Source: Octopus vulgaris
Taxonomy: Eukaryota
Length of the DNA stretch: 64,000 nt
Assembly: GCA_951406725.2 (NCBI GenBank)
Contig: OX597827.1
Coordinates: 26,722,001-26,786,000, forward strand
Direction of reading: 5' to 3'
Of the stretch, positions 1,577 to 4,499 are shown one piece after another. The position numbers and the translations under genes were made by a program. A model generated the notes under the pieces. It saw nothing but the letters and a program-made list of their open reading frames with translations, did no database searches and was not told where the DNA came from. Position 1 is the stretch's first letter. Each line of letters opens with the position of its first letter.

Positions 1577-2329
1577 TTTTTTTCTTCTTTCAAATTTGCT
1601 TCCATTTCTTGCCAAGTGTCTTCCCGACTCCTAGGGCAAAGAAACTCATAGTATACATTGGTAGGCCATTAAACCAAACTCAATACTTCGTTCATTTTTT
1701 TTATTTTTTATTTTTTTTAAAGTTAAATTAAAATACATGGGTAGTAATAATTCTCACATCGACAATGCTCTCAATACGTGTGATGTACCAGTTAAGACAA
1801 TCTTTTGTACTTCTTGCAGGGATGGTAAGCCAGGGATCATTCTCATATAATTTTCGGTTCCCTTCTTGATCATTCCTAGTGCTCCTACGATCACTGGTAT
1901 TGTAACCGCCTTGAGATGCCACATTTTCTCAATTTCAATGAGTAGGTCTTTATATTTTCTGAGCTTGTCAAACACTTTCGCTGAGATATTATGAACTACC
2001 AGGCCAATGTGATGAAAAATGGAGCAGACCCAAAATGCCGATTCTGCAACGACATGATTGAAACAGTGGACCACCTAATCTCTGGATGTAAAGTCTTAGC
2101 ACCAGTGGAGTATAAATTAAGACATGACAGAGTTGGCCAATATCTACACTGGCTAATAAGTCGGCATTACAATATCAAAACTGCCGACAAGTGGTATAAT
2201 CACCACCCTGAGGCTGTAACTGAAGGAGAAAATGTAACCATTCTGTGGGACTTTCCAGTATATACAGACCGAACCATCAAGGCCAATAAACCAGATATTG
2301 TTGTGAAAGACCAAAACAATAAAGTTTGC

Positions 2330-2330
<1 letters not shown>
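1576..2330 (-). mobile_element. R4/Dong-like RLE non-LTR retrotransposon, 5'-truncated, with inverted 5' segment
   Basis: + strand 1991-2330 encodes CRFC..ETVDHLISGC (CCHC), RHD and KPDIVV. - strand ~1993-1754 encodes the continuation KLRKYKDL..IPVIVGALG..QKIVLTGT to a stop. Flanked by (TTA)n on both sides. Confidence 0.85.
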
Positions 2331-2379
<49 letters not shown>

Positions 2380-2650
2380 GAGTGAGAGGGTAGTGCATGC
2401 CATCAAATTGACGCTGGGGTAAAATATACGAAGCCCAGTATACCCATCATGACTACCCGTCTTATAAAGGAACACCAAGCATATGCATCACAACCATATG
2501 TGTACGAAAAACTGAACTCATATCAAAATAAACAGCGCATGAACTTGCAGATAGGTCCGAGCGAGAATTTTCTTCAGTTCGTGTCGCCCATCCCGCTCAA
2601 AAGGTCCCTGAATATGGTTTGTTTCAGGATGATGAGCAAAACACCCATGT
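2380..2650 (-). mobile_element. Probable 3' end of a non-LTR element with (TAA)n tail
   Basis: Complex sequence abutting (TTA)n at 2329-2379; family not identified. Confidence 0.35.
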
Positions 2651-2720
2651 GACCGCGTGTGTGTACCGTTGGCGATTTTTTTCCTCCGTCTTCCCTTCTT
2701 TGGATTTTTCCTTTTCCTAT

Positions 2721-2754
2721 GTTCTGACGAAGAGCTCCGCTCGAAACGTTAAAC
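2721..2754 (+). ncRNA. Minimal type I hammerhead ribozyme (family A, Penelope pLTR-like repeat ~2680-2860)
   Basis: gtt-CTGACGA-a-gagc(tcc)gctc-GAAA-cg-TTA-aac; palindromic AACGTT stem III; stem I only 3 bp. Confidence 0.7.
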
Positions 2755-2857
2755 CCTCCTTCTTTCCTTCTTTCCTGAGCGTCCAATAATACTATACTTG
2801 TTCCACGTCCTCGCGTTGTTGAGTTTTCTCTTTGTGTTTTCCTGTTTGGATTAACTG

Positions 2858-2906
<49 letters not shown>

Positions 2907-3058
2907 ATAGTTATCGCCATACTAATATGGCATTCTTATAAAAATAAGAAAAAAGCTGTCCGCTTATTAGCTCCATGAGGCCATCGCCTTAAGTTAGCTA
3001 TTTGATACACAAACTGTATCCATATAACCTTCGAACAAGGGAGGTCAGTCGCTCCACA

Positions 3059-3129
3059 CTACTTGACCGGCAGCTACAGACGCGTTTCGGGGTATTGCCC
3101 CTTTTCAATGCAGCGTAGCCAGCCAGTAG
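3059..3129 (-). ncRNA. Type I hammerhead ribozyme, U3-A8 variant (copy 1)
   Basis: - strand ctgca-TTGAAAA-gggg(caata)cccc-GAAA-cgcg-TC|tgtag; stem I extends via ctactggctggc/gccggtcaagtag. Confidence 0.8.
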
Positions 3130-3420
3130 GTGTCGCTTCCGACAATCTCTGTTCGATGGTTTTATTTACCTAGTTTCGGTGGAATACATCCACTTGTTTT
3201 CAATAATAGAAATATTAAAATAACTAAGTCTCTTTAAAAGAGAACAGCGGCAGCGTTCCCGGAAAATAATAGTTATCGCCATACTAATATGGCATTCTTA
3301 TAAAAATAAGAAAAAAGCTGTCCGCTTATTAGCTCCATGAGGCCATCGCCTTAAGTTAGCTATTTGATACACAAACTGTATCCATATAACCTTCGAACAA
3401 GGGAGGTCAGTCGCTCCACA

Positions 3421-3491
3421 CTACTTGACCGGCAGCTACAGACGCGTTTCGGGGTATTGCCCCTTTTCAATGCAGCGTAGCCAGCCAGTAG
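3421..3491 (-). ncRNA. Type I hammerhead ribozyme, U3-A8 variant (copy 2)
   Basis: Identical to copy 1, 362 bp away. Confidence 0.8.
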
Positions 3492-3818
3492 GTGTCGCTT
3501 CCGACAATCTCTGTTCGATGGTTTTATTTACCTAGTTTCGGTGGAATACATCCTCTTGTTTTCAATAATAGAAATATTAAAATAATATTAAAATAGTTTG
3601 TAGCTGCCGGTCAAGTAGTGTGGAGCGACTGACCTCCCTTGTTCGAAGGTTATATGGATACAGTTTGTGTATCAAATAGCTAACTTAAGGCGATGGCCTC
3701 ATGGAGCTAATAAGCGGACAGCTTTTTTCTTATTTTTATAAGAATGCCATATTAGTATGGCGATAACTATTATTTTCCGGGAACGCTGCCGCTGTTCTCT
3801 TTTAGAGAGACTTAGTTA

Positions 3819-3870
<52 letters not shown>

Positions 3871-3871
<1 letters not shown>

Positions 3872-4198
3872 GAGGAGTACCGAAAAGTAACCGGAACCTA
3901 CTCTGTGGGACAAATCCATTGTAGTTCAGGCTTCCGCCGCTAGAAGCCACTTGATACATTCCTCAGGCATCAGTTTGCCGAACGGCGTCGTTGAGTGATA
4001 TCCTGCTGCCACCTGGTGCGTCTTTGTTTTGCAGTGCTTCTCCCCTGTTCGTCGATTTTTGCGATGGCTGAAACGAAAGAACCACGTGTTTCCATGAAAT
4101 TCTGTTTTCTGATGGGGGAAACGGCGGCCGAAACATTTGTCATGCTTCAAACAGCTTATAAGGACGCTGTCAGGAGCAAAATGGTTTTCGCGCTTTAG
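3871..4198 (+). mobile_element. Mariner 5' end fragment
   Basis: TA-cgagg TIR start; ATG at 4064 gives MAETKEPRVSMKFCFLMGETAAETFVMLQTAYKD, a mariner N-terminal HTH. Confidence 0.8.
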
Positions 4199-4499
4199 GT
4201 CAACCTCGTTCAGGGTGGCCTTCGACCTTCCGAACGAATAGCACACATTGGATAATAGTATTCTGGGTACCCTGCATATTGGAAGAAACTGAATGGCCAT
4301 GCGTGCAATGCCTTTCTTCGTTGGCCAGCTTCATCAGGATTGACCTGGGGTTAAGCATCAACAAATTACCGTTGTTATCATTGTTGTTGTTGCTCTTGTT
4401 ACTGTTGAAGCTCTTGTTTTTGTTGCTATTGTTGTTGTTGTGTTACCCGAAGTCTTCCCGCACTGAGCAGACGGGTGCCAATTGAGTGACACTGGTATC

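Follow-up and report, generated by a model that had tools for sequence, protein, structure and literature searches.

Circular RNAs of retrozymes have been demonstrated and Penelope-like elements (PLEs) were proposed to mobilise them (Cervera and de la Pena 2020, PMC7229834), and retrozymes have further been linked to pLTRs (Li et al., bioRxiv 10.64898/2026.07.22.740005). The reverse transcription of retrozyme circles by PLEs is treated as a hypothesis so far (PMC7229834, PMC4209133). For PLEs themselves, an inverted copy and a one-sided tail have been described (Craig et al. 2021, PMC8557442; Arkhipova et al. 2013, PMC3846280), and the origin of the tandem/inverted structures and of the one-sided tail is stated as open (PMC8557442). 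A U3-A8 variant of the hammerhead ribozyme (HHR) has been described for PLEs, and a palindromic helix III is given as the signature of hammerheads cleaving as dimers (both PMC4209133). In vitro, uncleaved RNA was reported as the main substrate of the anole Poseidon PAc (Frangieh et al. 2024, PMC11167929).

The window analysed here is a stretch of 64,000 nucleotides of Octopus vulgaris (contig OX597827.1, positions 26,722,001 to 26,786,000, forward strand). The insertion at window positions 2901-3827 belongs to a young family of 362-base mobile elements that code for no protein and carry a ribozyme predicted to cut itself. Unit positions were numbered from window position 3440 on the - strand, which is the first base after GUC and therefore unit position 1. 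Re-analysis of window 2858-3870 confirmed what the initial annotation had described in the sequence, namely a tandem, an inversion, an overlap, a filler and TA flanks. The 362-bp tandem on the - strand at 2901-3585 was reproduced (1.9 copies, 99%), as was the inverted + strand segment at 3599-3827, and the first bases of this segment (position 3599) are the first bases after GUC. The 12-nt overlap of the arms is real, with the + segment ending at unit position 229 and the - arm starting at unit position 218. A 13-nt filler (3586-3598) is present between both arms, and (TA)n occurs on both outer sides (2858-2901 and 3824-3870). The features are as follows.

2858 to 2901: left (TA)n target tract (TRF), the tail of a separate 210-bp HHR-bearing repeat
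2901 to 3585, - strand: long arm, running through unit 218-362, 1-362 and 1-178 in that order, with a P175-class priming site at its outer end
3079 to 3440, - strand: one full 362-nt unit from cut site to cut site, predicted to form a closed branched rod
3435 to 3476, - strand: type I hammerhead with U3-A8 core and palindromic helix III, predicted cut between 3441 and 3440
3073 to 3114, - strand: the hammerhead again, as a second copy whose cut is predicted between 3079 and 3078
3586 to 3598: junction filler of 13 nt, made up of 10 templated nt that repeat the end of the adjoining arm and 3 extra bases
3599 to 3827, + strand: short arm, unit 1-229; its outer end is a P238-class priming site
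3824 to 3870: right (TA)n target tract (TRF)

Two of the three extra filler bases match unit 360-361, so a start of the short arm at 360 is equally possible, in which case the cleavage base carries a C>T change. More than 100 other insertions share the same architecture, which makes a general assembly artefact unlikely as its source. An allele at 207 that this copy has in common with one other locus (L002) was judged a chance recurrence picked by best-hit ranking.

The separate repeat on the left (~210 bp; window 2647-2857, + strand) contains, at 2724, a minimal hammerhead of the C3-G8 type and has (TA)n as its tail, and 4,696 first-look candidates were obtained for this C3-G8 repeat. It is probably the 3' end of another PLE family into whose tail the retrozyme was inserted, and other copies of it end in a TA run that lacks the present insertion. 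The right TA tract adjoins an element with a decayed frame (window 3869-4330), which we take to resemble the start of a Tc1/mariner element. Window 1754-2422 contains an element fragment broken by a (TTA)n run; it presumably corresponds to a non-LTR retrotransposon endonuclease region, which it resembles.

Judged from its unit, hammerhead, fold and insertion content, the element is almost certainly a non-LTR retrozyme, in agreement with the young retrozyme-like insertion first proposed for this locus. The 362-bp tandem, non-coding unit falls in the 150-450 bp range of non-LTR retrozymes; no long ORF could be found in the unit, and no RT or GIY-YIG frame there. Insertions consist of unit sequence only, between TA tracts, and an LTR/PBS/PPT organisation was absent as judged from this insertion content. 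In the 2.8 Gb, microsatellite-rich host genome, a tight ribozyme pattern was matched 1,118 times and a relaxed HHR pattern 1,982 times, and a second subfamily was ~85% identical to the main one. A total of 190 loci were fetched, comprising the 30 best matches, 100 picked by an end near 175 and 60 picked by an end near 238; 10 of them were duplicates and were dropped before the counts, leaving 180 distinct loci with 189 clusters. The end statistics leave out subfamily B (<91% identity) and the 30 best-match loci. One segmental duplicate, L035, was counted twice in the cluster tally and in the inner-end and junction counts, and once in later counts. Two arms were present in 138 of the 189 clusters, and a TA run bordered both outer ends in 119/134 two-armed clusters and one end in 15, in sets partly chosen by one TA end. 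Assembled contigs from four presumed-RNA runs cover the unit sequence (one of them 392 nt), a cover in which circle, tandem and DNA sources look alike.

Some loci of the sample are more complex. Extra template switches within one arm were observed in L098, L014, L100, L037 and L157, and L157 joins two haplotypes, so two RNAs can contribute to an insertion. In L007 and L116 both flanks are inverted copies of each other, owing to either a secondary rearrangement or an assembly fold-back.

The presence of a hammerhead in each unit, with cleavage predicted, could be backed by family-wide conservation and covariation despite the lack of an Rfam hammerhead match in the unit, either at the gathering score or by E-value; its class (type I, U3-A8 core) was assigned by eye. 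U3 and A8 were invariant in 236/236 copies of the fetched loci while N7 varied, and helix III was a 6-nt palindrome in 226/236 copies, with two alternative palindromes. Among 13 natural copies, 94% of the hammerhead cells were paired compared to 28-51% in slid controls, and five pairs were changed on both sides, relatedness of the copies inflating the shuffle comparison. The 40-295 domain was left out of this count, only one distinct stretch of it having been extracted. Folded as a circle, the unit is predicted to be a closed branched rod, with -121.0 kcal/mol against -83.4 +/- 5.3 for 60 shuffles (z -7.1), and the ~85% identical subfamily retains the main stems and hairpins of this predicted fold. 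The ribozyme core and the predicted closed rod are under selection. Insertion makes use of ends located within, or next to, AU-rich parts that are predicted to be single-stranded; positions 236-238 are predicted to be paired, which counts against the priming model proposed below. A second hammerhead-like motif was noticed at unit 238-272 (window 3203-3169 and 3565-3531, - strand), with a U3-A8-type core, a hairpin, GAAA and GUA, and without stem I. In the predicted fold it forms a junction presenting the P238 loop, and it may be either a relic or a structural domain.

The outer ends of the arms revealed a family-wide rule. In 121 of 124 classifiable two-armed insertions, one arm ended at unit ~175 (P175) and the other at ~238 (P238); the 189 clusters were distributed as 121 mixed P175/P238, 3 same-site, 10 with one atypical end, 4 cut by the fetched stretch and 51 single-armed. 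A second P175 end was found in 1/75 of the loci chosen by a P175 end, and a second P238 end in 1/27 of those chosen by a P238 end, and no independent-choice ratio fits both oppositely selected locus sets. One of the three same-site cases is L007, the flanks of which are inverted-duplicated.

Both arms of an insertion also share a haplotype. The variant 128A was present in both arms of 30 insertions, in one arm of 1 and in neither of 53, and 219A in both arms of 15, in one arm of 0 and in neither of 36. All 12 variants unique to single insertions occurred in every covering segment, and 7 of the 12 span both arms. Neither arm contained the other in 36/75 insertions, and these non-nested insertions were concordant at 128, with 11 carrying the variant in both arms, 13 in neither and 0 discordant. 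Further, 81/115 arm junctions overlapped by at least 2 nt compared to 17% by chance, as determined by mismatch-tolerant extension. Fold-back self-priming, in which the second arm is copied from the first as proposed for PLE inversions (PMC3846280), would account for the inverted junction microhomology and for the identical arm haplotypes. Such copying does not produce the 36 non-nested insertions, nor the 6/12 simple two-armed insertions that are likewise non-nested in a Neptune-type PLE of this genome, and the nested share is close to the expectation for two independent cDNAs. As the general route, fold-back is refuted by the non-nested insertions and was given hardly any chance; it could hold for a minority of the nested cases. 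Two separately primed cDNAs are kept as the preferred reading of the arms, and a highly probable one.

The copying of the template could be followed across the ribozyme site. Crossings of this site were exact in 159/164 cases, with 4 carrying substitutions and 1 a 1-nt insertion, and up to 4 crossings occurred per arm. Fixed haplotypes numbered 23 among 66 insertions, and unfixed variants were not inherited in register between insertions (54 vs 54.7 expected); these two results together require repeated copying of a monomer somewhere in the cycle. The rolling-circle type of template suggested by the initial annotation was graded likely. An unfixed variant was common to both arms in the same round in L074, L076, L149, L155 and L181, and unfixed variants were shared out of register in L021, L149 and L157, which points either to mixed multimers among the templates or to conversion between the arms. 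Shared haplotypes would likewise be expected if identical RNAs came from a single source locus.

A tandem built by repeated template jumps on one linear monomer, each leading from its 5' end back to its 3' end, would account for the monomer bottleneck and for the two-site rule, and the long stem holds both monomer ends together. Template jumps between free ends usually add or lose bases, as seen in R2 work, whereas only 1 of the 164 crossings has an indel; such jumping was considered very unlikely. Uncleaved read-through transcripts of tandem sources, primed twice within one unit and followed by DNA-level homogenisation of the arrays, fit the exact crossings equally well. In-register mixed units in about 5 insertions are also in their favour, as is the dominance of uncleaved RNA in vitro for the anole PLE (PMC11167929). 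With read-through transcripts, arrays could lose units but not gain them, yet up to 4 crossings are seen in single arms, and variants are fixed across inverted arms even in very young copies. The lack of in-register inheritance between insertions and the selection on ribozyme core and rod also count against uncleaved transcripts, which were judged improbable as the source. The circle is the template on which the balance falls, somewhat above an even chance, as the main one.

The initial annotation had placed the beginning of the template exactly at the ribozyme cleavage site and had suggested checking whether copy ends pile up at GUC|. The placement was not borne out, since inner ends did not accumulate there. 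When inner ends were measured after extension across the unit boundary 362|1, 4/219 fell at 361-3 against 2.5 expected (P=0.25), and only 2/157 passes ended at positions 1-3, the other 155 continuing. A count of 13 ends at 1-3 was rejected as a BLAST query-edge artefact, most such arms running 3-17 nt further upstream. Inner ends were enriched in broad zones at 11-20, 31-52 and 201-210, partly at recurrent inverted microhomologies. The short arm of the present copy starts at position 1 without microhomology, and its start at the cleavage site is probably a chance end point. The earlier joining of the two arms into one continuous RNA of ~900 nt was also not supported, as family-wide there is no relation between where one arm ends on the inside and where its partner ends on the outside. 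Of the L1-style twin priming invoked at first, the priming of both DNA ends stood, while the first cDNA does not stop at the second primer; no excess of ends was observed at 171-190 or 231-250, as L1-type twin priming would need.

First-pass stops 4-20 nt downstream of the site were observed in 18/122 cases compared to 1/54 in later passes, and first-pass ends were rare at 21-36. The excess at 4-20 is real but ambiguous. These stops could reflect a 5' end that was cleaved and then trimmed, or else stalling within the long stem, and the same excess would arise on a circle if the stem were intact during the first turn only. Where an insertion had an end at 1-20 (18 cases), its second arm ran across the site in 9, so a circle fits better than a trimmed cleaved end. 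Stalling was compared between P175 and P238 arms (15/79 vs 4/43), and the difference was not significant (P=0.20). For a ligation scar, substitutions at 355-7 were not clearly raised in a tally that omits two C>A changes at 362. A linear multimer with its 5' end made by ribozyme cleavage, twin-primed so that the internal cDNA ran off at the cut, would be in line with the start of this copy at position 1 and with the first-pass ends, the enrichment at 4-20 and rarity at 21-36 being as trimming would give. Four insertions (L035, L036, L089, L135) in which both arms end near the monomer 5' end also agree with such a run-off. The site itself has no excess and almost all passes continue through it, the other arm crosses it in half of the 18 insertions, and the stop at the other primer is missing. 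Nor could new variants become fixed in every unit if linear multimers were the sole templates. Run-off from a cleaved linear multimer is an unlikely explanation, and the two separately primed cDNAs on a probably circular template are retained.

Overall, the reading leaned towards is that a TA repeat is cut by a PLE-type RT/GIY-YIG protein, which then primes from both DNA ends with a single 362-nt RNA, probably a circle, as template. Tandem transcripts would self-cleave through dimeric HHR, and the monomers would be ligated to give 362-nt circles. The PLE protein, possibly as a dimer, would cut the (TA)n target, and would bring one target 3' end to the AU-rich linker (near 175) and the second to the AU-rich loop (near 229-238). 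Each RT would then roll for 0-4 turns, and the two minus-strand cDNAs would be joined by short inverted microhomology or by templated filler. One RNA, or one particle, probably stands behind both arms. The complete version, in which a protein dimer primes both cut microsatellite ends at two fixed sites of one circular RNA while two RTs roll, is put forward tentatively, at slightly less than an even chance. The family, the two-site rule, the common haplotype of the arms, the exact read-through, the non-nesting and the junction microhomology are established here; all RNA and protein steps named above are inferred from genomic architecture and statistics.

A candidate for the helper could be found in the same genome. 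This PLE has a 784-aa open frame with a Cys-rich linker and a GIY-YIG Pfam match, occurs in many near-identical copies and appears to be active; it may be called Neptune-type from the linker motif described in PMC8557442. Like the retrozyme, it has a U3-A8 core with palindromic helix III and a (TA)n target. It starts 56 and 94 nt past its own predicted cut site (38 nt apart), and the first start site was on exactly one side in 13/14 two-armed insertions; the two-site rule holds for this PLE too. The retrozyme unit gave no blastn match to the Neptune pLTR or ends, and the local score was 37 against 27.4 +/- 3.7 for shuffles (max 45). In the absence of significant similarity, Neptune is a helper candidate by behaviour only; other PLE families are also present in the genome, and this particular Neptune was given slightly less than an even chance of being the helper. 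At L221-L238, a very young Neptune-type PLE has a 4,433-bp unit in tandems of up to 3 units; a 446-codon frame lies upstream of the 784-aa RT/GIY-YIG frame, and (CTT/CAT)n makes up a long 3' region. Beside the retrozyme insertion of L259 (from 144, + strand) lies a PLE-like 575-codon open frame with RT-like and C-terminal GIY-YIG-like motifs, and no hammerhead could be found at its 3' end.

The locus is of a known kind, being a non-LTR retrozyme whose insertions are PLE-type. Neither the two-site rule seen across the family nor the outcome on non-nesting was found in print; literature searches covering open-access main texts gave no account of the mixed-site rule or the non-nesting test, and the supplements of PMC11167929 and PMC7229834 may bear on this novelty. 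Non-nesting argues against the published self-priming explanation of PLE inversions. With over a thousand young copies, a 362-nt template, two mapped starts and a co-resident, apparently active PLE, both the origin of the PLE structures and the reverse transcription of retrozyme circles become testable in vitro. If the proposed mechanism is true, one rule would explain the PLE tandem, the head-to-head inversion and the one-sided tail; retrozyme circles would be genuine transposition templates, and the genome would record the PLE integration mechanism directly.

Compared with described non-LTR retrozymes, the octopus family is alike in its non-coding 150-450-bp tandem unit with one type I HHR each, in its low GC, in its self-paired fold and in the co-residence of PLEs (PMC7229834; bioRxiv 10.64898/2026.07.22.740005). 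The octopus copies differ in being dispersed and two-armed, head-to-head in (TA)n, with two fixed ends and a U3-A8 core. The text available from these two sources contained no end mapping, inversion analysis or per-insertion haplotype analysis.

With EN+ PLEs of the Neptune type, as far as described, the family shares partial tandems, an inverted 5'-truncated copy, microsatellite targets and a tail that is often one-ended; it differs in the lack of an ORF and in a tail-equivalent of ~63 nt against their 30-40 (PMC8557442; PMC3846280). In these papers the tail is presented as optional and inversions are attributed to self-priming or endonuclease resolution (PMC8557442; PMC3846280), whereas the end asymmetry of the retrozyme is near-obligatory and half of its insertions are non-nested.

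The anole Poseidon PAc is alike in that both target strands are cut and extended, a dimer is predicted, and two internal RT start sites bound the tail; it differs in that, in the account given, start sites did not differ between strands and had no homology to the target (PMC11167929). The two ends of the retrozyme insertions, in contrast, use different sites, both of them AU-rich and TA-like.

In L1 twin priming both target 3' ends prime and a head-to-head joint with microhomology is formed, and the retrozyme insertions are alike in both respects. They differ from it in having two primers that are internal and fixed, in arms that overlap over long stretches and run past the other primer, and in a template that is read over several turns.
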